Shown here in pieces: positions 4,310 through 29,150 of a DNA stretch of 64,000 nucleotides. Location of the stretch: assembly GCA_036759025.1 (NCBI GenBank), contig DAIOVL010000001.1, positions 189,807-253,806 on the forward strand. Direction: 5' to 3'. How positions within the stretch are numbered: position 1 is the stretch's first letter; each line of letters starts with the position of its first letter. Source of the stretch: Bacteroidales bacterium. GTDB taxonomy: Bacteria > Bacteroidota > Bacteroidia > Bacteroidales > VadinHA17. The translations under genes and the position numbers were made by a program. Under the pieces are notes generated by a model that saw nothing but the letters and a program-made list of their open reading frames with translations, was not told the origin of the DNA and searched no databases.

Positions 4310-4373
4310 CAGGGATATGAAGAAATTGGAGAAATATAGTACGGGTGATATATTAGAACTTAATAAGAGAATC

Positions 4374-6194: not shown

Positions 6195-6231
6195 GACATT
6201 ACAGATGTCCCGCTAAATAAAACAAAAAACC

Positions 6232-7428: not shown

Positions 7429-7474
7429 TATTTTACACTGCTTGTTGTTAATTAATTATAAACCCTGTTAACCA

Positions 7475-9514: not shown

Positions 9515-9518
9515 TCAC

Positions 9519-11363
9519 ATGAAAGGGAGTATTGCATTATCTGCTTTCTTTTTTCTGCTGTTAACGGCGGGGAGACTGAACTCGCAAACTCCGCTAATAC
9601 ATACATACAGGACAATAGTTAATGCCGACTACACCCACGGACAACTGCCAGCCGCATACGGAGTCCATAATATACAGATAATGCGTGCCAACAGGGAGGA
9701 TCCGGAATGGGGCTCAAAACCCGGCTGGACCTATAATCACGGACCCGATATCGCATACTGGAATGGTAAATTCTATGTAGATTATCTGAGTAATCCGGAG
9801 GGAGAACATACAGCCCCGGGACGCTCATGCATACAGACTTCAGATGACGGTTATAACTGGAGTCAGCCAGTGATTGTTTTTCCACAATACAGGATCCCTG
9901 ACGGGACAACCAAGAAAGGTGTTGAAGGGATTGCTAAGGATCTGGATGCAGTAATGCATCATCGTATAGGATTTTATGTTTCAAAGAAAAACAACAGATT
10001 ATATGCTCTCGGATATTACGGCATCTGCTTCAGTCCCCGCGACAAACCTAATGACGGTAAAGGTATAGGCAGGGTAATAAGGGAAATACATGAAGACGGG
10101 TCATTGGGTGAGGTGTATTTCATAAGATATAATCATGGTTGGGTCGAATCAAATACCTCCTTTCCTTTCTATAAAAGCAGTAATGATAAGGCTTTTGTAC
10201 AGGACTGCATTGAAATGCTGGGAAACCCTCTGATAACGCTGCAGTGGCTTGAAGAAAGTGATGTTAATGATCCGGTAATACCTAAGCTTAACGTAAGGGG
10301 ACAAGCCTTCTGCTGGTATACTCTCGACGACGGACGCGTTATCGGAATGTGGAAAAGCAAGTTATCAGGAGTAAGCACCAACGATGGCAATACCTGGTTG
10401 ACAGGAAAAACTCCGGGACTGTACACTGCATCGGCAAAAATGTGGGGTCAGCGTACTTCCGACGGCATGTATGCCCAGGTTTTCAATCCTTCAATTTACA
10501 GATGGCCGATGGCCGTATCCGTAAGTGATGACGGTCTGGAGTATAAGAACCTGCTTCTGGTTCACGGAGAGATATCCCCGATGCGTTATTCCGGTAACGA
10601 AAAATCTTACGGTCCTCAGTACCTGAGAGGCATAATACCTGGAAACGGTACTGTACCCGATGGCAATATGTGGCTTTCATACAGTGTAAATAAGGAAGAT
10701 ATCTGGGTGATGCGGGTGTCGGTACCAGTTATTGGCCTGGCCCCGGAACATATTAATGAAGATCTCTCACTTTATGACGACCTGAGCCAGATGACAAGGT
10801 GGAATATTTATTCTCCACTCTGGGCAAAGGTAAAAATCGGGAACTCTCCGGCCGGAGTAAAAGCGCTTCTTTTAAGTGACCAAGACAGGTATGATTTTGC
10901 TAAGGCCGAACATCTCTTTCCCGAAACCATAAAGCCCGCAGCTGAGTTTGCAATCATTGCCGGTCAGACTGACCATGGACTTCTGAACATTGAATTGCAG
11001 GACGGTTCGGGAAATGCCGGAATTCGGATCTCTTTTGATCCAGATGGTATGATAAAATCAAAAAGATCATATAAATTCAATAACCTCATACCTTATGAGG
11101 CAGGGGAGATATACAGGTTCAGAATAGAAGCTGACGCAGATAACCTAACCTGCAGGATTAAAGTTAACGGCAGGGAGATAGTTCAGGATCTATATGCACC
11201 GGTCAGATCATTCGGCAGAATAGTATTCAGGACCGGAGAGCTCTTCAGGGTGCCGACTCCCGATACTCCTGCATACGGAAACTTTGTCCTGGAAAATGCC
11301 GGTGAGAAAAGCGCCATGGCAAAATTCTACATCCTTGGTGTAAAGACTGAGGATCTGAAATAA
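9519..11363 (+). CDS. GH143-like Dha (3-deoxy-D-lyxo-heptulosaric acid) hydrolase, stand-alone (true start 9519, not 9372)
   Basis: GVHNIQIMRANRE, GWTYNH.P..AYWNG, PNDG.GIGRV.REI, AK.WGQR, RWP.A.S.S.DG, KSYGPQY.RGI, YSVNKED match the recalled N-terminal module of B. thetaiotaomicron BT1020; signal peptide from 9519. Confidence 0.75.
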   Translation: MKGSIALSAFFFLLLTAGRLNSQTPLIHTYRTIVNADYTHGQLPAAYGVHNIQIMRANREDPEWGSKPGWTYNHGPDIAYWNGKFYVDYLSNPEGEHTAPGRSCIQTSDDGYNWSQPVIVFPQYRIPDGTTKKGVEGIAKDLDAVMHHRIGFYVSKKNNRLYALGYYGICFSPRDKPNDGKGIGRVIREIHEDGSLGEVYFIRYNHGWVESNTSFPFYKSSNDKAFVQDCIEMLGNPLITLQWLEESDVNDPVIPKLNVRGQAFCWYTLDDGRVIGMWKSKLSGVSTNDGNTWLTGKTPGLYTASAKMWGQRTSDGMYAQVFNPSIYRWPMAVSVSDDGLEYKNLLLVHGEISPMRYSGNEKSYGPQYLRGIIPGNGTVPDGNMWLSYSVNKEDIWVMRVSVPVIGLAPEHINEDLSLYDDLSQMTRWNIYSPLWAKVKIGNSPAGVKALLLSDQDRYDFAKAEHLFPETIKPAAEFAIIAGQTDHGLLNIELQDGSGNAGIRISFDPDGMIKSKRSYKFNNLIPYEAGEIYRFRIEADADNLTCRIKVNGREIVQDLYAPVRSFGRIVFRTGELFRVPTPDTPAYGNFVLENAGEKSAMAKFYILGVKTEDLK

Positions 11364-11394
11364 AATACGGTATAAAAGACTCAAACCAAAAAAT

Positions 11395-13041
11395 ATGAAG
11401 GCCTCCCGGATTAATTTTGTCACTTTTACTCTGGTCATTTCTTTTTTATTTTGTTCATGCAGCCGGACAGATGAGAAGGTTCAGATGAAAGTTATCCAGT
11501 ACCAGGTGCCGGTTCTGGTCAGTAAACCCGATAACCCCGTATTACAGATAATGCTTATGCCTGCCGGCAGCTCTGAAAGAATGGTAAGAGAGATCTCCGT
11601 TTCTCTTGAAGGAACCTCAGATATGAGTGATATCCGGACATTACGACTTTTCAGTTCCGGAGGTGATATGACTTTTTCGGTTGAAAATCCTTTTGGAAAA
11701 GACATGCCCCCGGCACCTGTTGTGAAATTCGAAGGTAATTTGCCGTTAAGTGACACGCTTAGCTTATGGCTCTCTGCTGAGCTAAAAACATCGGCATCGC
11801 TTCTCAATAAAATACAGGCTAGCTGTATTTCGGTTAAAACATCTGAAGGCAAGGTTCAGCCGGATACTTCTTTCATTCCGTTAAAACTGCGAATCGGTCT
11901 GGCTCTCAGAAAGCACCTCGACGATAATGTCCATACTTACAGGATCCCGGGACTTACTACCACAAAAAATGGGACCCTTCTCGCCATTTATGATATCAGG
12001 AGGAACAGCAGCAGGGATCTGCAGGGGGATATCGACATAGGATTGAGCCGCAGCACAGATGGAGGAAATACCTGGGAGCAGATGAAGGTGGTTCTGGATA
12101 TGAAGGAATGGGGAGGTCTGCCCCAGAAATTCAATGGCGTAAGTGATGCATGTATCCTTGCAGATAATACAACAGGTAAGGTTTTCATTGCAGGTTTATG
12201 GATGCATGGTGTTCTCGACAGAAACGGTAAGTGGATTGAGGGCCTGACCGATGAATCTGATGCATGGGAGCATCAGTGGAGGAATAGTGGATCACAACCG
12301 GGATTTGGAGTAAAGGAGACCTCACAGTTTCTTGTTGTTTCCAGCAGTGATGATGGTGTTACATGGTCGGAACCTGTCAATATCACAAAAATGTGTAAGA
12401 GGAGGGAGTGGTGGCTCTGGGCTCCTGCTCCCGGGCACGGCATCACTCTGAAAGACGGAACACTGGTAATGCCCACCCAGGGAAGAGATGAAGAGGGAAA
12501 ACCTTTTTCAAATATAACATGGAGCAGGGATGGCGGCATAACATGGAAAACAGGCAAACCTGCATATTCAAATACAACAGAATCCATGGCCGCAGAGCTC
12601 TCCGACGGATCAGTGATGCTGAACATGCGTCATAACCAGAACAGGAACAACCCTGGAGTAAATAACGGTAGGGCAGTTGCTGTGACCGGCGACCTTGGAG
12701 AAACCTGGACAGAGCATCCCTCATCCAGAAATGCACTTATTGAGCCTACATGTATGGGAAGTCTGCATCGTCACGATTATACTGAGAACGGCGTGAAGAA
12801 ATCAATCCTTTTATTTTCAAATCCTGATTCAAGGACTGCGCGAACACACATGACAATAAAAGTCAGTTTTGATGACGGGATGACCTGGCCCCTTCAGAAC
12901 CGGCTGCTGCTCGATGAACTAAGGTCGGCCGGATATTCATGCCTCACGTCGATCGATGAAAATACAATAGGTATCCTCTATGAAGGCAGCCAGTCGATGC
13001 TGACCTTCGAGATGATACCTTTGTCTGAACTTATCAGGTGA
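11395..13041 (+). CDS. GH33 sialidase-family lipoprotein (sialidase or Kdo hydrolase)
   Basis: YRIP motif, Asp-boxes SRSTDGGNTW, SSSDDGVTW, SRDGGITW, TGDLGETW, SFDDGMTW; GYSCL, ILYE. Confidence 0.9.
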   Translation: MKASRINFVTFTLVISFLFCSCSRTDEKVQMKVIQYQVPVLVSKPDNPVLQIMLMPAGSSERMVREISVSLEGTSDMSDIRTLRLFSSGGDMTFSVENPFGKDMPPAPVVKFEGNLPLSDTLSLWLSAELKTSASLLNKIQASCISVKTSEGKVQPDTSFIPLKLRIGLALRKHLDDNVHTYRIPGLTTTKNGTLLAIYDIRRNSSRDLQGDIDIGLSRSTDGGNTWEQMKVVLDMKEWGGLPQKFNGVSDACILADNTTGKVFIAGLWMHGVLDRNGKWIEGLTDESDAWEHQWRNSGSQPGFGVKETSQFLVVSSSDDGVTWSEPVNITKMCKRREWWLWAPAPGHGITLKDGTLVMPTQGRDEEGKPFSNITWSRDGGITWKTGKPAYSNTTESMAAELSDGSVMLNMRHNQNRNNPGVNNGRAVAVTGDLGETWTEHPSSRNALIEPTCMGSLHRHDYTENGVKKSILLFSNPDSRTARTHMTIKVSFDDGMTWPLQNRLLLDELRSAGYSCLTSIDENTIGILYEGSQSMLTFEMIPLSELIR

Positions 13042-13065
13042 TTTTTCTGAAATCTGAGACTTAAT

Positions 13066-14313
13066 TTACACGAAGACCCTGCAAATATGTCTCTCGTATA
13101 TATTGTCAAAAACACATTTTGCGACAGTTTCCTCATTCGCCTCAAGCAGTTTGAAATACTCTTCCATCCTGAGGGCAGCCAGTTTGAAAGAAACATGGAC
13201 CAGCTGTCGCATATTTGAATTGTAATCCTTGTTTTCGGGTATATGTCTCAGTGAATCGACGAACTTTTTGCTGTTCCAGCCTTCAACTTCTTCCTTTGAT
13301 GGCAGCAGTGACCTGTTAATGTCAATTACGTCGGCATAGGGTGCACACAGTTCATCAATTTTCTCAAGGGCTTTGAAATATATCTCCTTAACGAATGTGA
13401 GAGCCTCTCCGCCAGCTTCTGCGAGACCGATCACTTCTTCAAGCCATGTCGTTCCGGCGGTTTTCAGGTGAAGCCCCTTGTCGTGTTTTTTAATTATTGA
13501 TTTGATGACAGGATATATTGAGAATTTGTCGGATCCTGAATGGACACTCATTTTGAGACTTGCCGGCAGTCCGAATTCCTTTACGGCATAGTCGATAACC
13601 ATCAGGTCGGCTTCGAATTCTTCTGCAAACTGCTTAATATCTCCAACATAATCTACACCTTTATTAAAGCGTCCGGAAAATTTTGGAGCTATGGTCTGGG
13701 CCGGGATGTTTTTTTCTCCCAGCATCCTGAGGATGAAGAAAAGCTCTACAGGTGTCTGTGGAAGAGGCACTTCGTCCATTGAAACTTCTGAAACGAAATT
13801 TCCCCTGCCTTTTTCTTTTTCAATTTTCGTGTAGATCTCTGATGCTTTAACAGCTGCAAACAGGTAGTTTCCGGCAATATCTCTTATCCTTTGTTCAGTA
13901 ACGTTCAGAGGTTTTTCGATTCCCGGGATATTCAAATCACCCGCGTACTTCAGTGAATCTGATACGAAAGCTTCTATTTCGCTTTCATCGGCACGTTTGC
14001 CAATGTAGGATGCGACATCGATGGTGAAGAAGTCGGAGCTGCTGATAAAGCGATCAACTGTGTCGAGATTAATATGGTCAGCATCAACAAAATAGGCTTT
14101 GCCAAAATCTGCCTGGGCAGTAACATGGTCGGCTTCCTTTCTGACATCAGAAGGTTCCGTCCCTATGATGGTATGCTCCCTGTTGGATTTATTCCATACC
14201 GGAGTTATATCAATCCCCTTTTTTCCTGCTTCGATAACCGCTTTAAGCTGGGCTGCTCCCTGATGTCCGAAACGGTCGCCCATTCCGATTGAGTATTTTC
14301 CAAGTGTTTTCAT
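13066..14313 (-). CDS. uxaE: Tagaturonate/fructuronate epimerase
   Basis: SIGMGDRF, FVDADH, EVSMDE, HSGSDKFSIYP, HLKTAGTTWLEE. Confidence 0.92.
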   Translation of the reverse strand: MKTLGKYSIGMGDRFGHQGAAQLKAVIEAGKKGIDITPVWNKSNREHTIIGTEPSDVRKEADHVTAQADFGKAYFVDADHINLDTVDRFISSSDFFTIDVASYIGKRADESEIEAFVSDSLKYAGDLNIPGIEKPLNVTEQRIRDIAGNYLFAAVKASEIYTKIEKEKGRGNFVSEVSMDEVPLPQTPVELFFILRMLGEKNIPAQTIAPKFSGRFNKGVDYVGDIKQFAEEFEADLMVIDYAVKEFGLPASLKMSVHSGSDKFSIYPVIKSIIKKHDKGLHLKTAGTTWLEEVIGLAEAGGEALTFVKEIYFKALEKIDELCAPYADVIDINRSLLPSKEEVEGWNSKKFVDSLRHIPENKDYNSNMRQLVHVSFKLAALRMEEYFKLLEANEETVAKCVFDNIYERHICRVFV

Positions 14314-14333
14314 ATATATAGTTTTAAAATTAA

Positions 14334-15383
14334 TTAAAGGAAAAACTGAACATTCTCCGAAGTTACAACATCTACAGGGAGATATTCCATTTTCTCAGGT
14401 GTTTTATTCATTGAGATAAAATCGAATAGCTTCCTGACACCCTTGTATGCCTGTTCTTCAGGTCGTTGCCCTATCAGGAATCTTATTTTTCCTGTTTTAA
14501 GATATTTCACATTGTTTTCAAGCAGGTCGTATCCTATGATATTGACAGAATTGATTCCTTCCGACTCGAAATAATCAGCAATTTTGTATGATTTTGATCC
14601 TGTAACAAATATCGATCCCGTATTCTTATGCTGCCGCAGTATTCTTTTCAGTTCACGGTTAATAAAATCAGTCTGAGGATTATAGATTGCATAGCTTGTC
14701 AGCCTGTTCTGCCTGTCTTCCTGAAAGTAGCTTATGAATCCCTGTGTTCTGACATTAAGGTGATGTACATTACTTATGTTTCTGGCTATATTGATGATTA
14801 GTATCTCTTTTTCAGGTGGCGTTACCATATTGACAAGTTGTGCGGCCACTCTGCCGCTCTGGTATATGTTCTCACCGGTATAGCACAGGAAACTTGTTTC
14901 TTCGAGAAAGCCGTCGATGAAGACGAACGGGATATTACTTCGTGTAAGTTTTTCGCATAGTGTCAGTGCTTCATTTTTAAAAATGGGAGCGAGGATTACA
15001 CCATCAGGATTCAGTCTGATCAGTTCTTCCGATTTCGATTGAAAATCTCTTTCATCAAGCATGTCGAATGTCACCTGTTCCAGATTTACAGGAAAGGGAT
15101 CCAGCTCTTTCAGCGCTTTTTGAATTCCTTCCGGATGCTTCATCCAGAACGCACTTTCCTCAACAGGTTCAGGAAGGAGAGAAACCAGCCTGACTCTTTT
15201 TTTTGATTTAAGGGCTCTGGCGATGACGTTGGGAGAGTATTCCAGATCTTTGGCGATCTTTAGAATATTCTCCCTTGTCTTTTCCGCCACTTCACCCCTG
15301 TCATGAAGGACTCTGTCGACTGTCCCGATAGATACTCCGGCAAGTTCGGCAATGTCCTTTATCCTTGCTCTTTTCGGGGACAT
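14334..15383 (-). CDS. LacI-family transcriptional regulator (hexuronate regulator)
   Basis: IKDIAELAGVSIGTVDRVLH HTH, Y.PN..ARAL hinge, periplasmic-binding-like effector domain. Confidence 0.93.
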   Translation of the reverse strand: MSPKRARIKDIAELAGVSIGTVDRVLHDRGEVAEKTRENILKIAKDLEYSPNVIARALKSKKRVRLVSLLPEPVEESAFWMKHPEGIQKALKELDPFPVNLEQVTFDMLDERDFQSKSEELIRLNPDGVILAPIFKNEALTLCEKLTRSNIPFVFIDGFLEETSFLCYTGENIYQSGRVAAQLVNMVTPPEKEILIINIARNISNVHHLNVRTQGFISYFQEDRQNRLTSYAIYNPQTDFINRELKRILRQHKNTGSIFVTGSKSYKIADYFESEGINSVNIIGYDLLENNVKYLKTGKIRFLIGQRPEEQAYKGVRKLFDFISMNKTPEKMEYLPVDVVTSENVQFFL

Positions 15384-15385
15384 AA

Positions 15386-16684
15386 TCAGTCTAATACAAC
15401 CTTTTTCTCTTTAGGTGCAAAAACAGTCATAATTATCCATGCAAGAAGATAGGCACTACCTGCAATTGCAAACATTACAACGTATCCGGTCTCGATATGA
15501 CCAAGATCTTTAAAATGCTGAAGTATAGCACCTGCGATATATGAAATGAAAGCTCCGCCCAGAGCACCTGCCATTCCACCTATTCCGGTTACAGAACTAA
15601 CGGCTTTTTTAGGGAATGCATCAGAGACGGTGGTAAAGATGTTTGCCGACCATGCCTGGTGTGATGATGCTGCAAGGGCTATCAGGCACACAGCTCCCCA
15701 GTTGCCTATTGAAGGAGACTGGGCAAAAATAATAGGTACAACCAGGAGCGCGAAGATGAGCATAGTAACGCTTCTGGCTTTAAAGGGTGACATGCCTTTT
15801 TTGATCATGTAACCTGAGACCCAGCCACCACCGATACTTCCCACCGTGGTCATGGTGTATATGAATGCAAGAGGAAGTCCGAATGATTTTACATCAAGTC
15901 CTGCACCGCGAACCGTCGAAAGCCAGCCGGGTATCCAGAAAAGATAAAACCACCATATAGGATCAGTAAGACCTTTACCTATGAAGAAAAGCCATGTCTG
16001 ACGGTATTTAAGAAGTTTTAACCATGATACTTTTTCTTTTGTCTCTGCCTGCTCGTCAACATCGCTGTTAATATATTCAAGTTCTCCTGCAGATATTTTC
16101 TTGTGTTTTTCAGGTATTTCGTAAAATATAAACCATAGAATTACCCAAATGAATCCAATTGCACCGGTAATAATAAATGCTGCCTGCCATCCCCATGCCA
16201 CAACCATGGCCGGTATAGCCAGAGGAGCCACGATCGCACCAACGTTTGTTCCTGAGTTGAATATCCCGGTCGCCAAAGCTCTTTCTTTCTTCGGGAACCA
16301 TTCTGCTACCGATTTAATGGCTGCAGGGAAGTTTCCAGCCTCACTGACACCAAGAAAGCCTCTCCAGAAACCAAAGCCGAGAGCTCCTTTTGCAAGGGCA
16401 TGTCCCATGGCTGCGATACTCCATAAAATTACCGCAACACCATATCCGATCTTTGTCCCGAACTTATCGATAAGACGACCGGCAATAACCATTCCGATAC
16501 CATACAGGATCTGAAAGGCCATGATAATGTGCGCATACTGCTCTTCTCCTATTCCCAGGTCAGTCTCCAGAAGCGGTTTCAGGATCCCTATAACCTGTCG
16601 GTCGAGATAGTTCACTGTCGTGGCAAAGAAGATCAGAGCGCAGACAGTCCATCTGTAGTTACTGAATTTTTTTGTTTCTGTCAT
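15386..16684 (-). CDS. exuT: Hexuronate MFS transporter
   Basis: RWTVCALIFFATTVNYLDRQ, EAGNFPAAIK.VAEWFP.KERALATGIFNSG, TDPIWWFYLFW. Confidence 0.9.
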   Translation of the reverse strand: MTETKKFSNYRWTVCALIFFATTVNYLDRQVIGILKPLLETDLGIGEEQYAHIIMAFQILYGIGMVIAGRLIDKFGTKIGYGVAVILWSIAAMGHALAKGALGFGFWRGFLGVSEAGNFPAAIKSVAEWFPKKERALATGIFNSGTNVGAIVAPLAIPAMVVAWGWQAAFIITGAIGFIWVILWFIFYEIPEKHKKISAGELEYINSDVDEQAETKEKVSWLKLLKYRQTWLFFIGKGLTDPIWWFYLFWIPGWLSTVRGAGLDVKSFGLPLAFIYTMTTVGSIGGGWVSGYMIKKGMSPFKARSVTMLIFALLVVPIIFAQSPSIGNWGAVCLIALAASSHQAWSANIFTTVSDAFPKKAVSSVTGIGGMAGALGGAFISYIAGAILQHFKDLGHIETGYVVMFAIAGSAYLLAWIIMTVFAPKEKKVVLD

Positions 16685-16704
16685 AGTGTTTGGTTATTAC
16701 TGAA

Positions 16705-18159
16705 TTACACATTATAAGTTGTCGATGCTGTTGTTCCTCCCCTTCCTGTCCAGTTGGTATGGAAGAATTCCCCTCTGGGCCGGTCGATACGCTCATAGGT
16801 GTGGGCACCAAAATAATCCCTTTGTGCCTGGAGAAGGTTAGCGGGAAGCCTTTCACAACGATATCCGTCAAAATATCCCAAAGCCGAGGATATTGCCGGT
16901 ACGGGTATCCCGTTTATCGTTGCGGTTGCAACCACATTTCTCCATCCCTGCTGGGCTTTTTCCACTTTGTCCCTGAAGAAAGGATCGAGAAGCAGGTTCG
17001 TTATTGAAGGGTCGTTGTCGAAGGCTTCTTTTATTTTTCCGAGGAAGGCAGATCTTATTATGCATCCTCCTCTCCACATGAGTGCAATTCCTCCATAGTT
17101 AAGATCCCATTTGTATTCTTCCGCGGCTGCTCTCATGAGAGCATATCCCTGGGCATAAGATACTATTTTGGATGCGTAAAGAGCGTCTCTTAATTCGTCG
17201 ATGAACTTTTTCCGGTCTGAAGAAAATGAAGCAACAGGTCCGTGAAGTACCTGTGATGCTTTTACCCTTTCATCTTTTACCGCCGACAGGCATCTTGAGA
17301 ATACTGCCTCACCAATAAGTGTAAGCGGAATTCCAAGATCCAGAGCTGCAACTCCCGTCCATTTGCCCGTACCTTTCTGACCTGCAGTGTCAAGTATCTT
17401 GTCGACAAGGGGAAGGCCGTCAGTATCCTTATATGCAAGTATATCCCTTGTAATTTCGATTAGATAGCTGTCGAGTTCACCCTCATTCCATTCCCTGAAG
17501 ACCAGATGCATCTCGTCAGCGCTCATGTGAAGAAGATCGCGCATTATCTGGTATGCTTCGCAGATCAGCTGCATATCTCCATATTCAATTCCGTTATGGA
17601 CCATTTTAACAAAGTGACCTGCACCATTTTCCCCAACCCAGTCGCAACAGGGAGAGCCGTCTTCCACTTTCGCCGCAATAGCCTGGAATATGGGTTTCAC
17701 ATGGGGCCATGCAGCTTTTGATCCTCCGGGCATGATCGAAGGCCCCAGCAGCGCTCCTTCCTCACCTCCCGATACTCCTGTTCCGATATACAGAAGTCCT
17801 TTACTCTCAACATAGGCAGTCCTTCTGTTGGTGTCAGGGAAATGAGTGTTTCCCCCGTCAATGATTATATCACCCGGCTCGAGATGAGGGATCAGGGTTT
17901 CAATCATATCGTCAACAGCACGGCCCGCCTTGACCATTATCATGATCTTCCTCGGTCTTTCAAGCGCTTTCACAAGCTCTTCAATTGAATGAGTACCGGT
18001 TATTTTCTTTCCATTTGCCCTCCCGGCAAGGAAATCATCGACTTTTTGTGTCGTACGGTTATAGACAGCTACATGGAATCCCTTGCTCTCCATGTTCAGA
18101 ACAAGATTCTCCCCCATAACTGCCAGACCGATAAGTCCGATGTCAGCTAATTTGCTCAT
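16705..18159 (-). CDS. gnd: 6-phosphogluconate dehydrogenase (decarboxylating, NADP)
   Basis: GLIGLAVMG, GVSGGEEGA, GHFVKMVHNGIEYG, QKGTGKW, WRGGCIIRS, AQRDYFGAH. Confidence 0.97.
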   Translation of the reverse strand: MSKLADIGLIGLAVMGENLVLNMESKGFHVAVYNRTTQKVDDFLAGRANGKKITGTHSIEELVKALERPRKIMIMVKAGRAVDDMIETLIPHLEPGDIIIDGGNTHFPDTNRRTAYVESKGLLYIGTGVSGGEEGALLGPSIMPGGSKAAWPHVKPIFQAIAAKVEDGSPCCDWVGENGAGHFVKMVHNGIEYGDMQLICEAYQIMRDLLHMSADEMHLVFREWNEGELDSYLIEITRDILAYKDTDGLPLVDKILDTAGQKGTGKWTGVAALDLGIPLTLIGEAVFSRCLSAVKDERVKASQVLHGPVASFSSDRKKFIDELRDALYASKIVSYAQGYALMRAAAEEYKWDLNYGGIALMWRGGCIIRSAFLGKIKEAFDNDPSITNLLLDPFFRDKVEKAQQGWRNVVATATINGIPVPAISSALGYFDGYRCERLPANLLQAQRDYFGAHTYERIDRPRGEFFHTNWTGRGGTTASTTYNV

Positions 18160-18186
18160 AATTATAGTTATATTAGTTAATCAATC

Positions 18187-18210
18187 TAAAACCTTAAACC
18201 TTTAAACCTA
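18187..18210 (+). repeat. Octamer tandem repeat TAAACCT(T/A) x3
   Basis: TAAAACCT TAAACCTT TAAACCTA between gnd and the oxidoreductase. Confidence 0.7.
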
Positions 18211-19185
18211 TTTATAATATTCTTTAACCATCTCCTCCAGAACCCGGCTTGTTCTCGCAGCTGTAATGCCGGTACTAACTGCAGGGATCTTTTTAGTCAG
18301 TGCCTCTACCACCTGACCGATAAGACAGATCTGAACATGTTCGGGCCGTTCATTTATGTACTCCTGTTTACCTGCTTCATTCTCAACTATTATCGGATCG
18401 AAACTGAAGCAGGAGAACCTGATGTAACCTTTATCGCCTATTATCTCAATTGAATCCCTTCCGGCTGACTGGTGAGCGTTAAAGCACCAGATTCCGGTTC
18501 CGGTGACATTATTGTCGAACATAAAGCCGGCCGAAACATAATCTTCAGCTTTGTACCAGGCACCCTGGTTAAGAGCATACGATTTAACCTCTTTAACAGG
18601 ACCAAACAAAAAATCCAGATAATCGAGCTGGTGTGAAGCAAGATCAAAAAAATGGCCTCCACCCGCGATTGCCGGGTCAACCCGCCATGAAAGCCTTCCT
18701 GATATTTCATCTGGTGAAGGAGCTTTAAAAAGCTGAAGATGAACCGATCGTACAGATCCGATCTTCCCTGAACTGATCATTTCCCTTACCATAACAAAAC
18801 CTGGCAATGCTCTGCGGTAGTATGCTACAAATACCGGGACCTGTTTTCTTTCGGCTGCTTCATTTATTTCCAGACACTCTTCATAATTCAAAGCCATTGG
18901 CTTCTCAATGTATACAGGTTTGCCTGCATCTATCGACATGAGAGCGTATGTTGCATGACTGGAGGGAGGAGTGGCCACGTATACAGCATTTACTCCGGGA
19001 TCGTTGATGAGCTCTGAAGCATCGGAATAGAACCTTGGCACATTATGTCTTTTCGCATAATCTTCAGCCAGCCCTGCATCTCTTCTCATAACGGCGGTGA
19101 GACGCGAGTCCTTTACTTTGTTAAAAGCAGGTCCGCTCTTGACCTCGGTCACATTGCCACATCCTATGATACCCCAGCTAATCAT
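18208..19185 (-). CDS. Gfo/Idh/MocA-family oxidoreductase, cytoplasmic (start 19185, ATGA overlap with upstream gene)
   Basis: WGIIGCG, YVATPP.SH, EKP, GGG...DLASHQLD; start codon overlaps the TGA of 19182..20456. Confidence 0.88.
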   Translation of the reverse strand: MISWGIIGCGNVTEVKSGPAFNKVKDSRLTAVMRRDAGLAEDYAKRHNVPRFYSDASELINDPGVNAVYVATPPSSHATYALMSIDAGKPVYIEKPMALNYEECLEINEAAERKQVPVFVAYYRRALPGFVMVREMISSGKIGSVRSVHLQLFKAPSPDEISGRLSWRVDPAIAGGGHFFDLASHQLDYLDFLFGPVKEVKSYALNQGAWYKAEDYVSAGFMFDNNVTGTGIWCFNAHQSAGRDSIEIIGDKGYIRFSCFSFDPIIVENEAGKQEYINERPEHVQICLIGQVVEALTKKIPAVSTGITAARTSRVLEEMVKEYYK

Positions 19186-20456
19186 TTTTCCAGACGCTCT
19201 CGTGAACTCCACAATCCTATGGCGGGATTTGAAATATAATAGATATCCTCACCGTCGGGCATGGTGTTGAAGCCATCCCTGAGTTTTTCCGGGTTGTATC
19301 TTGCCGTCATCTCAGATAGGTCTCCGTAGATGAAGTTAACAGATTCTATTTCCTCTCTGGTGAGATGCCCGGGGCAGTAGGTAATTGAAAACCTGCCTTC
19401 AGAACTGCCGTGAATAAGATGGGCTGCAGCGCTAAGGTTCTCCTCCAGTTCTTTATTTCCCCTTAGTGCAGCCATTGTTGCAGGTGTTCCCCTGTATCCG
19501 TATTTCCGTATAAGCCTGTCTATCTCCTTATCTTCTCCAAATTCCTTAAGGCCCGGAGCTATTACTATCAATTCCCCGTTATCAGCCATGGCCATTCTGG
19601 TCCGGTATATACTTTTATTGCCAAGCCAGGTTGACTTGAATTCAGAAGGATCGAGGTAAACGACAGCTTTCTTCAAAGGTTCTTCGAGAACCGTGAAGTT
19701 GACTTTCAGGGAAAGATCGGCAGCCAGGTTGAATACATTTTCATCATCACCGATATAAAGGCCCCTGATCACAAGTTTGCCTGAATTGTCACGGCCTATA
19801 ACCGTGTGGACGTACACTACAGGCAGATGAGGAATAAAATTCTTTGAAGCATAGTTCAGAAGTCTTCTCACAGGTGTGTCTGCCTTGCCCATCATCCTTT
19901 CCATTCCGAAAACAGCACCCACAAAATGACTTTTATTGATACCTTCCGGTCCTCCGGTTCCGACGAAAAGGTTCTTGTTATAATTTGCCATGCCGATAAC
20001 CTCATGAGGCACCACCTGTCCGACTGATAGTATAAGATCATGTCCGCCGTTGATTACCAGTCTGTTCAGCTGCGCAGGCCATGAATAGTCTATGGCTCCT
20101 CCGGTAACTTCATGAACGTATTCTCCTGGTATTGTGCCTACTGTCACAACATCATTCCTCCAGTCATGGACCCTGAACAATTCGGGCGGCACATCCCTGT
20201 ACATCTCACCGATCTCGCCGGCTGTCATTGCCACATGAGTTCCCAATGCAGGAAGTATGTCCTTAAGGCTTTCCCTGTAATATTTGTATATCAGGGTTGT
20301 AATCTCACCCGCCCGTGAATGAAACCTCGTAAAATCAGGGGGCACAACCAGGACATTTTTCCTGGGTCCCAGCTTTTCGAGAGCCGAATAAAGCCCCTGT
20401 TGAAGATCTTCCGGACTTATAACCGTATCTGGTGAACCAGCGGAAAAATATATCAT
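19182..20456 (-). CDS. gntE: LarA (lactate racemase) superfamily protein, probable D-mannonate/D-gluconate 2-epimerase
   Basis: PPDFTR, ALGTH, VVPHEV.G.ANY.K, INKSH LarA-type motifs; sits between uxuB and gnd. Confidence 0.75.
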   Translation of the reverse strand: MIYFSAGSPDTVISPEDLQQGLYSALEKLGPRKNVLVVPPDFTRFHSRAGEITTLIYKYYRESLKDILPALGTHVAMTAGEIGEMYRDVPPELFRVHDWRNDVVTVGTIPGEYVHEVTGGAIDYSWPAQLNRLVINGGHDLILSVGQVVPHEVIGMANYNKNLFVGTGGPEGINKSHFVGAVFGMERMMGKADTPVRRLLNYASKNFIPHLPVVYVHTVIGRDNSGKLVIRGLYIGDDENVFNLAADLSLKVNFTVLEEPLKKAVVYLDPSEFKSTWLGNKSIYRTRMAMADNGELIVIAPGLKEFGEDKEIDRLIRKYGYRGTPATMAALRGNKELEENLSAAAHLIHGSSEGRFSITYCPGHLTREEIESVNFIYGDLSEMTARYNPEKLRDGFNTMPDGEDIYYISNPAIGLWSSRERLEK

Positions 20457-20493
20457 TTCAAATCAGGATTTAATATTGTTTTATTCCATCGTC

Positions 20494-20537
20494 AGGTTGA
20501 GGATTGACTGTCAAAATCAGGTTCAACCTTTCAACCT
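20494..20537. repeat. Inverted repeat AGGTTGA/TCAACCT with tandem TTCAACCT x2 in the uxuB-gntE spacer
   Basis: AGGTTGA at 20494-20500; TTCAACCT TTCAACCT at 20522-20537. Confidence 0.5.
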
Positions 20538-20543
20538 TTCTCC

Positions 20544-21380
20544 CTACACCCCGCTGTAGGCACTGAATCCTCCGTCGACAGGTATTATTACTCCTGTAAC
20601 GGCTTTAGAGAGGTCGGATGCCAGGTAAAGCAACGTTCCGGTCATTTCCTCAGGTATGCAGTAACGTTCCATGGGGGTTCCGTTTATTATTTTCTTACCC
20701 CTGGGCGTCATTTCTCCTGTCTCTTCATTGATAAGGAGGAAACGGTTCTGGTTTGTAAGCAGGAAACCGGGAGCTATGGCATTTACTCTGATACCCACTT
20801 TGGCAAAATGAACTGCAAGCCATTGTGTAAAATTGTTGACAGCAGATTTGGCTGCTGAATAAGCAGGAATCTTGGTAAGGGGCCTGTATGAATTCATAGA
20901 GGAAATGTTGATTATTGCACCTGACTTTTTATCTGTCATATCAGTTGCAAAAACCATTGAAGGAAGAAGAGTCCCTTTGAAATTCAGGTCGAAAACCTTA
21001 TCAAAGCCTTCTATTTTTAGTCCGAAGAAGGTGTCCTCAGGATTTTCGTTCCCCTCCATCTTTTCAACCTTTGTTGTTGCCGCGGGAGAGTTGCCTCCGG
21101 CACCATTGACGAGGATGTCGATCGTGCCAAGCCTTTCATGAATTTGTTTTAAGGCAGATTCAAGAGAGGCCTTATCCAGAACACTGGCGGAAACCCCAAT
21201 GGATTTAGTTTTGAATTCTTCCTCTATCCCGGCAGCTACTTTATCGGCAGCTTCCTGGTTAAGATCCAGAATCACCGTCCTGACTCCGGCAGCCGCCAGC
21301 GATCTGGCCATTGTGGAACATATAACACCAGCTCCTCCGGTCACGACGGCTATTTTGTCCTTAAGATTCAGTTCATTCAT
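20544..21380 (-). CDS. uxuB: SDR D-mannonate oxidoreductase / fructuronate reductase
   Basis: TGGAGVIC, NGAGGNSP.ATT, YSAAK, NFTQWLAVH, NAIAPGF; follows uxaC. Confidence 0.85.
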   Translation of the reverse strand: MNELNLKDKIAVVTGGAGVICSTMARSLAAAGVRTVILDLNQEAADKVAAGIEEEFKTKSIGVSASVLDKASLESALKQIHERLGTIDILVNGAGGNSPAATTKVEKMEGNENPEDTFFGLKIEGFDKVFDLNFKGTLLPSMVFATDMTDKKSGAIINISSMNSYRPLTKIPAYSAAKSAVNNFTQWLAVHFAKVGIRVNAIAPGFLLTNQNRFLLINEETGEMTPRGKKIINGTPMERYCIPEEMTGTLLYLASDLSKAVTGVIIPVDGGFSAYSGV

Positions 21381-21401
21381 AATCTCAGAATTAAATTATA
21401 T

Positions 21402-22799
21402 TTAGAAACCAAATTGTTCTTTCGCATTCTTGTATGATATACCTTCTATTATAGGTCGGAGAAGTTCCTCCTCTTCAGGTATAAGACCTTTTTCGACTTC
21501 GGTACCCACGAAATTGCATACTATCCGCCTGAAATATTCGTGCCGCGGATAGGAGAGGAAGCTTCTAGAGTCGGTTACCATACCGATGAATCTTCTCATC
21601 AGACCGAATGAAGACAGATCGCGGATATGTTTTTCCATACCGGTTTTCTGATCAAGGAACCACCATGCAGCACCATACTGGACTTTAACCGGGATAGTTC
21701 CGTCGTTGAAATTACCTGCCATCGTTAGCATCATTTCATTGTCGGCGGGATTGAGGTTATACAGAATTGTACGTGCAAGCTGGTCTGTTTCATCCAGGCT
21801 GCTGAGAAACCTCGACATTTTAAGAGCATCCTGCGGCACGCCAATGGAGTCCCACCCGGTATCGGGTCCCATTTTTCTGAACATGCGGAGGCTGTTGTTT
21901 CTCATGGCTCCGACATGGAACTGCTGGGTCCACCCTCTCTTGTGGTTCATCCTGCAGAGTTCTGTCATAACTGCTGTCCTGTATTTTTCGGTTTCTTCTT
22001 CCGACAGCGTTTCTCCCTTTAAAAGCTTTATGAATGCATTTTCAGCATCGGCAGTGGTGAACGGAGCGTAATAGAAACGATCAAGACCATGATCGGACGC
22101 TTTTGTCCCCATCCCGTTAAAAAATTCATGCCTGTGGTCGAGCACTTCTATAAGGGTGGAGAAGCTTTTTATTTCTGTACCGGCCGATTCTCCCAGTTTT
22201 TTAATGTAGGCATTGAATTTTGCAGGGTCATCAGTCTTGACAACATTGTCGGGCCTCCAGGTAGGGAGGATAAGAATACTGAAGTTACCCTTTAATTTCT
22301 GGTGGTATTCGAGGGTGTCGGCAGGGTCGTCGGTGGTACAGACCACCTCAACATTCATTCTGCTGAGCAGAGATCTTATTGCAAAATCATCTGTACGCAG
22401 CATTTCACTGGCTTTAGTGTAAATGGCTGAAGCTGTCGATGGTGAAAGAAGCTCGTTAATATTAAAATACCTTGCCAGTTCAAGGTGGGTCCAGTGATAC
22501 AGGGGATTGCCCACAGCAAAAGGAACTGTTTCAGCCCATTTTGCAAACTTCTCAGGGTCGGAGGCGTTGCCCGTGCAGTATTTCTCATCAACACCATTGG
22601 TCCTCATGGCTCTCCATTTGTAGTGATCGCCTTCAAGCCATGCCTGTGTCAGGTTTTCAAACCTGCGGTTTTCATATATCATCGAAGGTGACAGGTGACA
22701 ATGAAAATCAATTATCGGTTGATTTTCTGCATATTGATGATAAAGTCTTTGTGCTGTTTTATTCTCCAGCATAAAATCATCATGAATGAAAGGTTTCAT
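21402..22799 (-). CDS. uxaC: Uronate isomerase
   Basis: PIIDFHCHL, WLEGDHYKWRAMR, GNPLYHWTHLEL, CTTDDP, GAAWWF.DQ, GMVTDSRSFLSYPRHEYFRR. Confidence 0.97.
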   Translation of the reverse strand: MKPFIHDDFMLENKTAQRLYHQYAENQPIIDFHCHLSPSMIYENRRFENLTQAWLEGDHYKWRAMRTNGVDEKYCTGNASDPEKFAKWAETVPFAVGNPLYHWTHLELARYFNINELLSPSTASAIYTKASEMLRTDDFAIRSLLSRMNVEVVCTTDDPADTLEYHQKLKGNFSILILPTWRPDNVVKTDDPAKFNAYIKKLGESAGTEIKSFSTLIEVLDHRHEFFNGMGTKASDHGLDRFYYAPFTTADAENAFIKLLKGETLSEEETEKYRTAVMTELCRMNHKRGWTQQFHVGAMRNNSLRMFRKMGPDTGWDSIGVPQDALKMSRFLSSLDETDQLARTILYNLNPADNEMMLTMAGNFNDGTIPVKVQYGAAWWFLDQKTGMEKHIRDLSSFGLMRRFIGMVTDSRSFLSYPRHEYFRRIVCNFVGTEVEKGLIPEEEELLRPIIEGISYKNAKEQFGF

Positions 22800-22854
22800 A
22801 TAATTAGTTTTAAATTATTGATTCGGTAATAGACTTCTAAAAATAGAAAAAAAA

Positions 22855-22870
22855 TCGTTAACGATAACGA
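22855..22870. promoter_or_regulatory. Candidate LacI-family operator TCGTTAACGATAACGA
   Basis: 16-bp near-perfect palindrome with central CG in the uxaC/kduI divergent region; a LacI gene is in the operon. Confidence 0.6.
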
Positions 22871-22974
22871 AGTGGCCTTCATTTGAAAAAAATATTTCTT
22901 AAATGTTGTTAATTTCCTCCCGCCATTATGGAAGTGATGTATGGTTTTAATATTGCGTTTACACTCAAAAATTG

Positions 22975-22982
22975 TATTTTTG
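22975..22982 (+). promoter_or_regulatory. -7 promoter element (TATTTTTG) for kduI
   Basis: TAnnTTTG with TTG about 19 bp upstream. Confidence 0.5.
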
Positions 22983-23055
22983 TCTGACATCACCCTTAAA
23001 AGTCTGTATCTGAAATCAGGTTGCCCAGGCAATTATTAACATAAACTATTATATC

Positions 23056-23892
23056 ATGAAAATTGAAATAAGGTACGCAGCACATCCGATGGATGTTAAA
23101 AATTATGACACCGGTAAATTAAGAAAAGAGTTTTTAATCGAGAAAATCTTTGAAGAGGACCAGATCCTGCTTGTTTATTCCATGTACGACAGGTACATCG
23201 TAGGCGGGGCCATGCCCGTGAAGCAGACTCTGAAACTTGAGAGTGCTGACGATCTTAAAATGCCTAACTTCCTCGACAGAAGAGAAATGGGGATCATTAA
23301 TGTCGGAGGCCCTGCAATTGTATCCACCAAAGAAAAAACCTTCAATCTTGGCCATAAGGAGGCTCTATATCTTGGAAAGGGAACGACAGATGTTACATTT
23401 AAATCGGAAGACAGCGGAAATCCGGCAAAGTTATATATCAACTCTGCACCCGCCCACCATACATATCCCTCAAAACAAATAACTCTTAAGGATGCAGAAG
23501 TGATCATGCTTGGAAGCCCGGAAACATCAAATCACCGAAGGCTGAATAAACTTCTTGTAAACAGTATAGTCGAAACCTGCCAGCTGCAGATGGGAATGAC
23601 AGAACTACAGACGGGCAGTGTATGGAACACAATGCCGGTACATACGCATAACAGAAGGATGGAAGCATATTTCTATTTCGAGGTGCCTGAAAAACAGGCT
23701 GTATGTCATTTTATGGGTGATCCCGATGAAACACGCCACCTGTGGATGACAAATGAACAGGCTGTTCTTTCTCCTTCCTGGAGCATTCATAGTGCAGCAG
23801 GAACTTCAAACTACACCTTTATCTGGGGTATGGCCGGAGAAAACCTCGACTATGGCGACATGGATGTCAGGCATCCGGATACGCTGAAGTAA
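23056..23892 (+). CDS. kduI: 5-dehydro-4-deoxy-D-glucuronate isomerase
   Basis: LR.EFLI, FLDRREMG..NVGG, CQLQMG.T.L..GSVWNTMP.HTH.RRME.YFYF, SPSWSIH, WGMAGEN. Confidence 0.97.
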   Translation: MKIEIRYAAHPMDVKNYDTGKLRKEFLIEKIFEEDQILLVYSMYDRYIVGGAMPVKQTLKLESADDLKMPNFLDRREMGIINVGGPAIVSTKEKTFNLGHKEALYLGKGTTDVTFKSEDSGNPAKLYINSAPAHHTYPSKQITLKDAEVIMLGSPETSNHRRLNKLLVNSIVETCQLQMGMTELQTGSVWNTMPVHTHNRRMEAYFYFEVPEKQAVCHFMGDPDETRHLWMTNEQAVLSPSWSIHSAAGTSNYTFIWGMAGENLDYGDMDVRHPDTLK

Positions 23893-24083
23893 TAGTGAAA
23901 CAAACATCAGTGCACAGGAAAATTTCAGGAGGAGGCTGTGCAGGAATCAAAAAGACAAACCGCAAAGAATGCAAAGCAGTAAATGCCATGGCCTGTGATC
24001 TTGAGTATCTTCCTCATTATCATTTCATTCAGCGGATATTAAATGACACATCTTCCTGATAATATAAATATAAAATATTTAAT

Positions 24084-24878
24084 ATGAACAATTTATTTGA
24101 TCTTAAAGGGAAAGTAGCACTAGTTACAGGCGGAACACACGGCATCGGACTCGCAATAGGAATCACTCTCGGCAAAGCCGGCGCAAAAGTATGCGTGAAC
24201 GATATCATGGATGAAAAACTTGACATCTGCAGGGAGGAATTCTCAAAGGAAGGCCTTGATGTTTACACTCTAAAATTCAATGTTACTGATGAGGCGGATG
24301 TTGACAAAAGTATAACTGAGATTGAAAGAAATGTAGGCCCCGTAGATATTCTCATCAATAATGCCGGGATAATAAAACGAATCCCCATTCTGAACATGAG
24401 TATTGATGACTACAAACAGGTTATTGATGTTGATCTGGTGGCACCCCTGATCGTATCCAAACGTGTTGCTCCGGGGATGATAGAAAAAAGAAGCGGAAAG
24501 ATTATTAACATGTGTTCCATGATGAGTGTTTACGGACGGAACACTGTCTCGGCTTACGCATCAGCCAAGGGAGGACTGAAGTTACTCACCGCGAATATGA
24601 CATGTGAATGGGCAAAATACAATATTCAGATCAACGGTATCGGTCCGGGATATATAGCCACATCGCAGACTGCCCCTATTCGTGAGAATGGCCATCCTTT
24701 CAACGACCTTGTGATGACCCGCACCCCGGCCGGACGATGGGGCGAACCTCAGGATGTGGCGAATGCTGCACTATTTCTTGCCTCTGAAGCCAGTAACTTC
24801 GTCAACGGACATATCCTTTACGTCGACGGTGGCATTCTTGCCAACTTCGGCTATGTAAAAGGAGAAAATGACTTATAA
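24084..24878 (+). CDS. kduD: SDR 2-dehydro-3-deoxy-D-gluconate 5-dehydrogenase / gluconate 5-dehydrogenase
   Basis: TGGTHGIG, NNAGIIKR, YASAKGG, NGIGPGY; follows kduI. Confidence 0.82.
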   Translation: MNNLFDLKGKVALVTGGTHGIGLAIGITLGKAGAKVCVNDIMDEKLDICREEFSKEGLDVYTLKFNVTDEADVDKSITEIERNVGPVDILINNAGIIKRIPILNMSIDDYKQVIDVDLVAPLIVSKRVAPGMIEKRSGKIINMCSMMSVYGRNTVSAYASAKGGLKLLTANMTCEWAKYNIQINGIGPGYIATSQTAPIRENGHPFNDLVMTRTPAGRWGEPQDVANAALFLASEASNFVNGHILYVDGGILANFGYVKGENDL

Positions 24879-24907
24879 CCCTTAAACCCTTAAACCTTTA
24901 AACCCTC
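24876..24907 (+). repeat. Tandem repeat TAAACC(C/T)T x4
   Basis: TAACCCT TAAACCCT TAAACCTT TAAAACCCT fills the kduD-kdgK spacer. Confidence 0.75.
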
Positions 24908-24912
24908 TTCCA

Positions 24913-25950: not shown

Positions 25951-25972
25951 AAAGAATTTCAACAGCTCTCTG

Positions 25973-28724: not shown

Positions 28725-29150
28725 TTAATCTCTCCTGAGCTTCAGATTGACTTTCCTGTCATATACATAATAGCAGGGTGTGGAGCATTTTTCTTTTTCA
28801 TAAACGAGACGGGGCGTGATGGATTCAACCACGTAGTATTTCTTGTCATTAAGAATATACATGGCAGTAAAGGAATATGTTTTGTTCATGGGTGCTTTGT
28901 AATAGGCTTCCTCTGAGTAGCTTTTAAATCTGTGAAAGAGAATGCTGTCTTCAACATAACCTTCATAGATACTTACTTCCACACCAAGTTGATTCTCATC
29001 GAGGCTCATAATTAGAAATACTTCAACAGGCTCATTTTCCGTACATTCCTCGCAATCCACTATTATAAATTTCTCGCAGGAAAAGAAGGCTGTCAGTATT
29101 GAAAACAATATCAGACCTCCAATTGTCCTTTTTATGCCTTTTAATACCAT
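28725..29150 (-). CDS. Hypothetical lipoprotein
   Basis: Lipobox FFSC; CEEC and CSTPC Cys pairs; overlaps the ankyrin gene by 10 bp. Confidence 0.7.
   Translation of the reverse strand: MVLKGIKRTIGGLILFSILTAFFSCEKFIIVDCEECTENEPVEVFLIMSLDENQLGVEVSIYEGYVEDSILFHRFKSYSEEAYYKAPMNKTYSFTAMYILNDKKYYVVESITPRLVYEKEKCSTPCYYVYDRKVNLKLRRD

Follow-up and report, generated by a model that had tools for sequence, protein, structure and literature searches.

A candidate hexuronate shunt into the pentose-phosphate pathway, with a LarA-family epimerase, in a Bacteroidales operon

The uxaC-to-uxaE operon and its LarA-family protein

We analysed a stretch of 64,000 nucleotides from a Bacteroidales bacterium of the VadinHA17 lineage (assembly GCA_036759025.1, contig DAIOVL010000001.1, positions 189,807 to 253,806 of the forward strand), called the window below, and focused on a run of genes for hexuronate catabolism that includes a putative nickel-dependent epimerase of the LarA superfamily. 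Eight tightly spaced open reading frames (ORFs) occupy the minus strand between positions 13066 and 22799, and their coordinates together with their Pfam and NCBIfam matches agree with the identities that an initial annotation, made from the DNA sequence, had given to them. These gene identities are direct observations. Starting from the first gene of the operon, they are as follows.

21402-22799, minus strand: uxaC, glucuronate/galacturonate isomerase, first operon gene (PF02614, 667 bits; NF002794 equivalog, 617 bits)
20544-21380, minus strand: fructuronate reductase / D-mannonate oxidoreductase of the short-chain dehydrogenase/reductase (SDR) type, UxuB type (NF006132, 389 bits, cut-off 281)
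19182-20456, minus strand: LarA-superfamily group 18 protein, putative D-mannonate/D-gluconate 2-epimerase dependent on the nickel-pincer nucleotide (NPN) (NF052594, 658 bits, cut-off 500)
18208-19185, minus strand: Gfo/Idh/MocA NAD(P) oxidoreductase (PF01408, PF22725, PF02894; without an NCBIfam equivalog)
16705-18159, minus strand: gnd, decarboxylating NADP-dependent 6-phosphogluconate dehydrogenase (TIGR00873, 788 bits)
15386-16684, minus strand: MFS transporter of the anion:cation symporter family, ExuT-like, for hexuronate or hexonate uptake (PF07690)
14334-15383, minus strand: LacI-family transcriptional regulator (PF00356, PF13407)
13066-14313, minus strand: UxaE-like tagaturonate/fructuronate epimerase, short form (PF16257, 188 bits, profile positions 80-471 of 475)

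From uxaC to uxaE, the genes are separated by 21, 87, -4, 48, 20, 2 and 20 nt, and because such small gaps fit one transcript, the eight genes fit a single transcription unit as judged from their spacing. A promoter and terminator scan of positions 12800-26200 returned counts equal to those of shuffled sequence and is uninformative on the operon, its consensus being unsuited to Bacteroidota promoters, and Rfam and tRNA scans of the window gave no matches. The start of the Gfo/Idh/MocA gene overlaps the stop of the epimerase gene by 4 nt, and public annotations of identical contigs also place it there and give a 325-aa product. This protein is coupled translationally to the epimerase, and its relatives in the PDB are generic sugar oxidoreductases.

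UxaC, the UxaE-like protein and the fructuronate reductase are thus all encoded together. The window UxaC shares 50% identity with E. coli UxaC. The MFS protein scores under every NCBIfam cut-off, including that of TIGR00893 (235 bits), and shows 32% identity over 391 residues with E. coli ExuT, which has an equal length. The UxaE-like protein is a divergent short form without the approximately 80 N-terminal residues of the Pfam model, and the solved structure closest to it is that of Cohnella UxaE (PDB 6IL9, E 7.6e-26).

The LarA-family protein matches NF052594, a family that NCBIfam names "nickel-dependent putative hexonate epimerase" and which is thus already named, with 658 bits, as against 24 bits for the next best model, malate racemase; its match to Pfam Lar_N is weak (29.5 bits). 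Its sole PDB match is GntE2 of Thermotoga maritima (TM0442, 4NAR; E 5e-34). Identity to listed group 18 members lies at about 52-67% (62% to Tannerella forsythia BFO_3309, 67% to the Melioribacter roseus protein, 63% to that of Acidobacterium capsulatum, and 54% to a eukaryotic group 18 sequence from a diatom), and falls to 27% with GntE2 and 29% with GntE1. When aligned with GntE1, GntE2 and group 18 members, the window protein keeps the LarA catalytic residues as D41, H74, H151 and K281 (D72, H108, H174 and K298 in the reference LarA numbering) and the NPN-binding residues as R44, K161 and H177 (R75, K184 and H200 in the reference), all seven being invariant in this alignment. The conservation of these active-site residues is likewise observed directly. 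The published GntE signature consists of E-V/S after the catalytic histidine, a tryptophan in helix 11, and an alanine and a histidine in helix 14 (Desguin 2020); the window protein carries E152-V153, W277, and both helix 14 residues within SAAAHLIHGSS. We therefore rejected a lactate or malate racemase identity on the basis of the 658 versus 24 bits, of 4NAR as only PDB match and of the conserved GntE residues, in line with the GntE-like assignment made initially, and we regard this protein as a candidate GntE-type hexonate 2-epimerase of LarAH group 18.

Conversion of mannonate to gluconate has been demonstrated for GntE2 of T. maritima and GntE1 of Corynebacterium glutamicum, while group 18, with the Bacteroidales member from T. 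forsythia included, was only "hypothesised to epimerise a hexonate" (Desguin 2020). In the same work, the gene context of group 18 was tabulated as SDR (36%), 6-phosphogluconate dehydrogenase (32%) and ribokinase-family kinase (16%), followed by MFS, glucuronate isomerase and KduI at 12% each (Desguin 2020). More recently, LarAH15 of the oomycete Phytophthora nicotianae was shown by the same laboratory to be a narrow-spectrum mannonate/gluconate 2-epimerase with a Km of 9.4 mM and a kcat of 111 per second, mannonate/gluconate being its only substrate pair (Urdiain-Arraiza 2024). The primer used to clone LarAH15 encodes M-A-T-L-L-F-A-E, which is the start of the LarA domain of the group 18 protein of Phytophthora infestans. 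Judging from this primer-encoded N-terminus, an oomycete group 18 orthologue therefore appears to have been assayed already, in 2024, as a mannonate/gluconate 2-epimerase.

Conserved synteny, the proposed route and the kinase step

A scan with one genome per species yielded at least 588 stretches encoding a relative of the epimerase, and the protein database holds more than 8000 clusters of such relatives at 90% identity, one of which, from a Bacteroidetes metagenome-assembled genome (MAG), is already named "D-mannonate epimerase". For the best 80 of these at least 588 stretches, taken with 10-kb flanks and numbered L001 onwards, ORFs were called and clustered, and the cluster representatives were annotated. 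Partners were counted at loci in which the epimerase is flanked by 6 kb or more on each side (30 from Bacteroidota, 14 from other phyla), with the following results (a dash where there is no count).

UxuB: Bacteroidota 29/30; other phyla 4/14
Gnd: Bacteroidota 28/30; other phyla 3/14
UxaC: Bacteroidota 25/30; other phyla -
UxaE: Bacteroidota 23/30; other phyla 4/14
LacI: Bacteroidota 20/30; other phyla -
KdgK-like kinase, clade A: Bacteroidota 15/30; other phyla -
KdgK-like kinase, clade B: Bacteroidota -; other phyla 9/14
Gfo: Bacteroidota 14/30; other phyla -
MFS: Bacteroidota 14/30; other phyla 2/14
KdgK: Bacteroidota 11/30; other phyla -
PdxB: Bacteroidota 11/30; other phyla 1/14
KduI / KduD: Bacteroidota 9/30; other phyla 1/14
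Eda: Bacteroidota 8/30; other phyla -
UxuA: Bacteroidota 3/30; other phyla -

Homologues of UxaA and UxaB were found at none of the 80 related loci, and the signature motif of glucose-6-phosphate dehydrogenase (Zwf) at none either; no search was aimed at pgl. A Gfo gene lies directly 3' of the epimerase gene in 26 of 81 loci, and the LacI cluster is present in 32 of 81. Two layouts dominate. The window-type layout, found in Rikenellaceae-like MAGs, has KduD and KduI divergent from UxaC-UxuB-epimerase-Gfo-Gnd-MFS-(LacI)-UxaE, and the layout of Prolixibacteraceae, Paludibacter and Draconibacterium has MFS-Eda-KdgK-UxaC-UxaE divergent from LacI-UxuB-PfkB-epimerase-(Gfo)-PdxB-Gnd. Dozens of species share this module, and chance falls far short of explaining the arrangement. 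This observed synteny with UxuB, Gnd, UxaC and UxaE, together with the lack of UxaA, UxaB and Zwf and the rarity of UxuA, strongly favours conversion of mannonate to 6-phosphogluconate.

We consider it reasonably probable that the operon is a hexuronate shunt into the pentose-phosphate pathway, and for this organism we infer every catalytic step as well as the direction of flux. Glucuronate or galacturonate would be imported by the ExuT-like MFS protein and isomerised by UxaC to fructuronate or tagaturonate, the UxaE-like enzyme would turn tagaturonate into fructuronate, and the SDR-type UxuB would reduce fructuronate to D-mannonate. The NPN-dependent group 18 enzyme would then invert C2 of D-mannonate to yield D-gluconate, 6-phosphogluconate would arise through a kinase encoded outside the window, and Gnd would produce ribulose-5-phosphate and CO2, returning the reducing equivalent used by UxuB.

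The kinase step was addressed with a neighbour-joining tree of 55 PfkB kinases, which resolves three clades. Kinases of the KdgK clade, to which the single PfkB kinase of the window belongs, adjoin Eda, UxaC or KduD, those of clade A adjoin the epimerase in Bacteroidota, and those of clade B adjoin it in Verrucomicrobiota, Acidobacteriota and Ignavibacteria. Clades A and B have no equivalog model and score 157-244 bits on the model of the 2-keto-3-deoxygluconate (KDG) kinase type, as compared with about 500 bits for true KdgK. In four Acidobacteriaceae loci, a gluconokinase of the GntK/IdnK type (TIGR01313, above cut-off) lies 0-3 kb from the epimerase, and the epimerase-kinase pairing is the most conserved feature across phyla. 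The window kinase shares 28% identity only with a clade A kinase; it was rejected as default gluconate or mannonate kinase, as its place in the tree is with the Eda-adjacent KdgK kinases and its score on NF041633 is 512 bits. In two window-type relatives (L007, L010), a clade A kinase gene follows the operon within a few genes, and a homologue search with the L010 kinase returned at least 120 matches, those listed being all 78-90% identical. The kinase of our organism is presumably encoded elsewhere in the genome. The proposal that uronates pass through mannonate and gluconate to Gnd, made in the initial annotation, therefore gains from the synteny and the active-site residues, and falls short in that the window holds no gene for a kinase making 6-phosphogluconate.

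In L003, L008, L036 and L080, a protein of the PPi-phosphofructokinase family (PPi, pyrophosphate) and a HAD-like protein lie upstream of the epimerase, in the PfkB slot (for example L008:7722-9008 and the next ORF; NF010675, 379 bits), and this pair may stand in for the kinase as a non-orthologous replacement.

The order of kinase and epimerase could also be the opposite one, with the same end points: a KdgK-like kinase would form 6-phosphomannonate, and the group 18 protein would be a 6-phosphomannonate/6-phosphogluconate 2-epimerase, the two being orphan activities measured in extracts of Lactobacillus suebicus. Many Bacteroidota have the order UxuB, clade A PfkB kinase, epimerase and Gnd, and the clade A kinase is distinct from KdgK and lacks an equivalog model. 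The L. suebicus extracts interconverted the 6-phosphates and did not epimerise free mannonate (Valk 2020), and the Km for free mannonate is high in every assayed GntE. Nevertheless, free mannonate is turned over by the assayed enzymes with a kcat of 59-197 per second, and the pairing of this epimerase group with a GntK/IdnK-type gluconokinase in Acidobacteriaceae speaks for free gluconate as the product; GntK homologues were also favoured as mannonate kinase by Valk et al. We hence judge this phosphorylated variant to be rather unlikely. The fuller proposal, in which the clade A kinase is a mannonate kinase, group 18 a 6-phosphomannonate 2-epimerase, and Gfo and PdxB perform further steps on 2-hydroxy or 2-keto phospho-hexonates, is equally doubtful; if true, it would supply genes for the two orphan L. 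suebicus activities of 2020 and define a widespread nickel-dependent, redox-neutral route from uronates to pentoses in environmental Bacteroidota, Verrucomicrobiota and other phyla.

The PdxB-type protein, a 4-phosphoerythronate dehydrogenase homologue, is encoded with Gnd on one side and the epimerase or Gfo on the other at many Bacteroidota loci (25 loci), for example at L041:6126-7265 (NF001309, 443 bits, cut-off 434) and also in L031, L034, L038, L040, L043 and L046; the window is without it. This could be a chance linkage of a vitamin B6 gene or a 2-hydroxy-acid dehydrogenase acting on a phospho-hexonate. Small proteins of 119-137 aa are also inserted among operon genes of relatives, namely c20 (L046, L058, L059, L064, L071), c37 (L048, L060) and c38 (L053, L056, L072), some between kinase and epimerase and others downstream of the epimerase; from their sequences they look like four-helix-bundle or GxxExxY-type proteins, selfish or insertion-prone elements.

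LarA enzymes require NPN, which is made by LarB, LarE and LarC. In Saccharicrinis sp. FJH62, a Bacteroidota isolate (L024), the genes UxuB-PfkB-epimerase-Gnd are directly followed by a TonB-dependent receptor, NikR, LarB, LarC and LarE, all above equivalog cut-offs; the segment L024:12819-18599 encodes these five proteins as well as an uncharacterised 244-aa protein. Uronate catabolism is thus linked physically, in this isolate, to the uptake and regulation of nickel and to synthesis of the cofactor. LarB, LarC and LarE also lie near the epimerase in two Acidobacteriaceae loci. These linkages make a functional nickel enzyme in Bacteroidota credible.

Past the left end of the window and within 10 kb of it, a three-subunit [FeFe]-hydrogenase cluster of the NADH-dependent type is encoded together with HypA, a HypB-like protein and HypE (L089:13419-20756); these genes mark the organism as an anaerobe that metabolises H2 and has proteins for nickel trafficking.

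Flanking genes, competing branches and regulation

Across a 256-bp spacer, three genes diverge from uxaC.

23056-23892, plus strand: kduI, 5-dehydro-4-deoxy-D-glucuronate isomerase (NF002091, 431 bits; PF04962)
24084-24878, plus strand: KduD-type SDR, scored by NCBIfam as gluconate 5-dehydrogenase (NF005488, 431 bits, cut-off 369)
24913-25950, plus strand: PfkB-family 2-keto-3-deoxygluconate kinase, KdgK clade (512 bits, on the kinase half of NF041633)

NF041633 is a model of a fusion of this kinase with the aldolase of 2-keto-3-deoxy-6-phosphogluconate (KDPG). As KduI, KduD and KdgK adjoin the operon, the branch from KDG to KDPG is represented in the window, and the organism keeps this branch, at least for unsaturated uronates; unsaturated uronates released through the neighbouring GH88 and lyase genes would follow this separate path through KduI, KduD and KdgK to KDPG. 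Among all ORFs of 150 aa or more that look real, Pfam scans detected no uxuA, uxaA, uxaB, eda or gntK in the 64-kb window, and tblastn with UxuA, Eda, UxaA and UxaB gave no matches in it. The initial annotation was thus right on these absences and on the operon as listed, and incomplete on the pathway context, the divergent kduI-kduD-kdgK genes having been overlooked and a KDG/Entner-Doudoroff branch being present.

Several observations weigh against the shunt as we propose it. The only PfkB kinase encoded in the window or its 10-kb flanks is of the KdgK type, and neither a clade A or B kinase nor a GntK of the P-loop or FGGY type was found in the window or within 10 kb past either end; the presence of KdgK in turn leads one to expect eda elsewhere in the genome. 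No larB, larC or larE was found in the window or within 10 kb past each end. Among group 18 relatives the only assayed one is eukaryotic, with a group assignment deduced from a primer, and none is bacterial, and all assayed GntEs have a millimolar Km for free mannonate (9.4, 17 and 120 mM). The scheme leaves the conserved Gfo protein without a role, and this protein fits no other scheme cleanly either. Finally, UxuA (TIGR00695, 543 bits) is co-operonic with the epimerase in L011, L032, L049, L056 and L058, where it separates UxuB from the kinase or epimerase in four loci (L049 starts at UxuA), and therefore two mannonate branches can coexist in some species.

A classical UxuA, KdgK and Eda set elsewhere in the genome could also carry the bulk of the hexuronate flux, the epimerase, Gfo and Gnd forming a side branch or acting on another hexonate. 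Such a branch could supply pentose phosphate and NADPH, or could run from glucuronate through L-gulonate, L-idonate as its C2 epimer, and 5-ketogluconate to gluconate, in which case Gfo and the SDR scored as gluconate 5-dehydrogenase would gain roles. KdgK, KduI and KduD adjoin the operon, Eda and KdgK occur in the same cluster in about 8-11 of the 30 Bacteroidota loci and UxuA in 3, and other native substrates have been suspected for some GntE groups by Desguin et al. On the other hand, UxuA is absent from 27 of these 30 loci while UxuB is beside the epimerase in 29, UxaE and UxaC accompany the module, the oomycete group 18 enzyme is narrow, with mannonate/gluconate as sole substrate pair, and more unassigned enzymes would be required. 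Altogether, we hold this reading to be unlikely. The reverse direction, from gluconate through mannonate to KDG as a gluconate catabolism without Edd, is very improbable: mannonate/gluconate epimerisation is freely reversible and UxuA is present in a few clusters, but the constant partners are Gnd, UxaC, UxaE and an ExuT-like transporter, UxuA is rare, and Gnd already offers gluconate-6-phosphate a direct exit. The shunt from hexuronates to ribulose-5-phosphate remains the reading that we prefer.

Regulation was examined in the divergent spacer, where the following element was first spotted by eye and then tested, an inverted-repeat tool run on the spacer having returned nothing.

22854-22865, no strand assigned: perfect palindrome ATCGTTAACGAT, candidate LacI operator, in the uxaC/kduI divergent spacer

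The exact 12-mer ATCGTTAACGAT occurs once in the window, and copies that differ at no more than one position lie upstream of uxaC in L001, L007, L010 and L020. Of 28 matches to the core CGTTAACG, 15 are intergenic, intergenic DNA making up 9% of the locus sequence, and the intergenic matches lie mostly just upstream of uxaC or lacI. We thus propose ATCGTTAACGAT as a candidate LacI operator common to both divergent units. KduI-KduD-KdgK and the shunt operon probably share one LacI-controlled divergent promoter region, through which they would be co-regulated.

Convergent with the operon, a plus-strand run of genes for pectin side-chain degradation spans positions 4302-13041. It encodes a GH35 beta-galactosidase, a GH88 unsaturated glucuronyl hydrolase, an RGL11-like lyase, a BT_1020-type beta-propeller with a sialidase-like carbohydrate-binding module, and a BNR sialidase-like protein; no SusC/SusD pair was found among the scanned window ORFs. 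The ORF at 9372-11363 overlaps its neighbour by 143 nt, public gene calls being shorter (614 aa). A second, separate module for sugar acids and 3-keto-glycosides lies at positions 58922-63380 and L090:11458-12279 and encodes a glucuronyl-esterase-like protein, a 3-dehydro-L-gulonate 2-dehydrogenase (NF009750, 409 bits) and a BT_2158-type glycoside 3-dehydrogenase (852 bits), followed by a 3-keto-disaccharide hydrolase just past the window end. Housekeeping genes between positions 46249 and 53471 are interspersed with further genes for glycan degradation, which encode a GH109-like oxidoreductase, a GH29 alpha-L-fucosidase and an apiosidase-like (GH140-type) protein, a set that fits rhamnogalacturonan-II use. 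A 498-aa protein made mostly of ankyrin repeats (29141-30637, minus strand), unusual for a free-living Bacteroidales, also occurs in five related loci (cluster c16).

Significance and comparison with known systems

Uronates from pectin and hemicellulose are major carbon sources for anaerobic Bacteroidota, and textbook reconstructions assume that they follow the KDG/Entner-Doudoroff route. Species-representative genomes with the module described here number in the hundreds, and protein clusters in the thousands. The module would make uronate use nickel-dependent and alter carbon and redox balances, one CO2 being lost while conversion to pentose phosphate is redox-neutral, and isotope tracing in digesters, sediments and guts, like their metabolic models, would have to be revised. 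The orphan kinase and epimerase activities moreover gain concrete candidate genes, and Saccharicrinis sp. FJH62 is a Bacteroidota carrier in culture. A specialist would not be astonished, yet the module is very widespread and uncharacterised.

The claim that the route is new to Bacteroidota holds in one respect, as full-text literature searches found no paper reconstructing or testing it in this phylum; it does not hold in another, as the group 18 gene links, T. forsythia included, were tabulated in 2020 and the family is named at NCBI. The novelty is therefore smaller than first claimed. The window protein is a clear member of group 18 and NF052594, and the published context of this group overlaps with the window genes; in contrast to the present analysis, that account contains no pathway reconstruction, names neither UxaE nor Gfo nor PdxB as a partner, and does not tell the epimerase-linked kinase clade apart from KdgK (Desguin 2020).

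As compared with the classical Ashwell pathway of E. coli and Bacteroides, the window holds UxaC, fructuronate reductase, KdgK and the KduI/KduD feeder, and lacks UxuA, UxaA, UxaB and Eda, with Gnd and a LarA-family epimerase in the place of the dehydratase. A parallel is found in the hybrid isomerase-phosphoketolase pathway of L. suebicus, where galacturonate is converted to ribulose-5-phosphate in an overall redox-neutral manner (Valk 2020), and where UxaC, UxaE and UxuB likewise lead to mannonate and then to 6-phosphogluconate and Gnd. There, however, the kinase acts first and is followed by a 6-phosphomannonate epimerase, described in cell extracts only, and the phosphoketolase pathway lies downstream.

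The initial annotation had called the operon Thermotoga-like, which stands for the logic of the route and not for its parts. A UxaE/GntE route in Thermotoga is said to have been predicted by Rodionova in 2012. The galacturonate operon of T. maritima has the order gnd-uxaR-uxaE-uxaD-gntE-gntK (Rodionov 2013), which matches the set of UxaE, mannonate reductase, GntE, GntK and Gnd given for it initially. Both systems have UxaE in place of the altronate branch, conversion of fructuronate to mannonate, C2 inversion by a LarA-superfamily enzyme and a co-operonic Gnd. The epimerases, in contrast, are 27% identical and belong to LarAH group 18 in the window and group 20 in Thermotoga, and the partners differ: the reductase is an SDR-type UxuB instead of UxaD and the regulator a LacI protein instead of the GntR-type UxaR. 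The window operon is without gntK, and Bacteroidota relatives carry a dedicated KdgK-like kinase clade rather than GntK, as well as a PdxB partner. In addition, the window operon includes uxaC and an extra Gfo/Idh/MocA gene coupled to the epimerase, and unlike its Thermotoga counterpart it is physically linked to kduI-kduD-kdgK.

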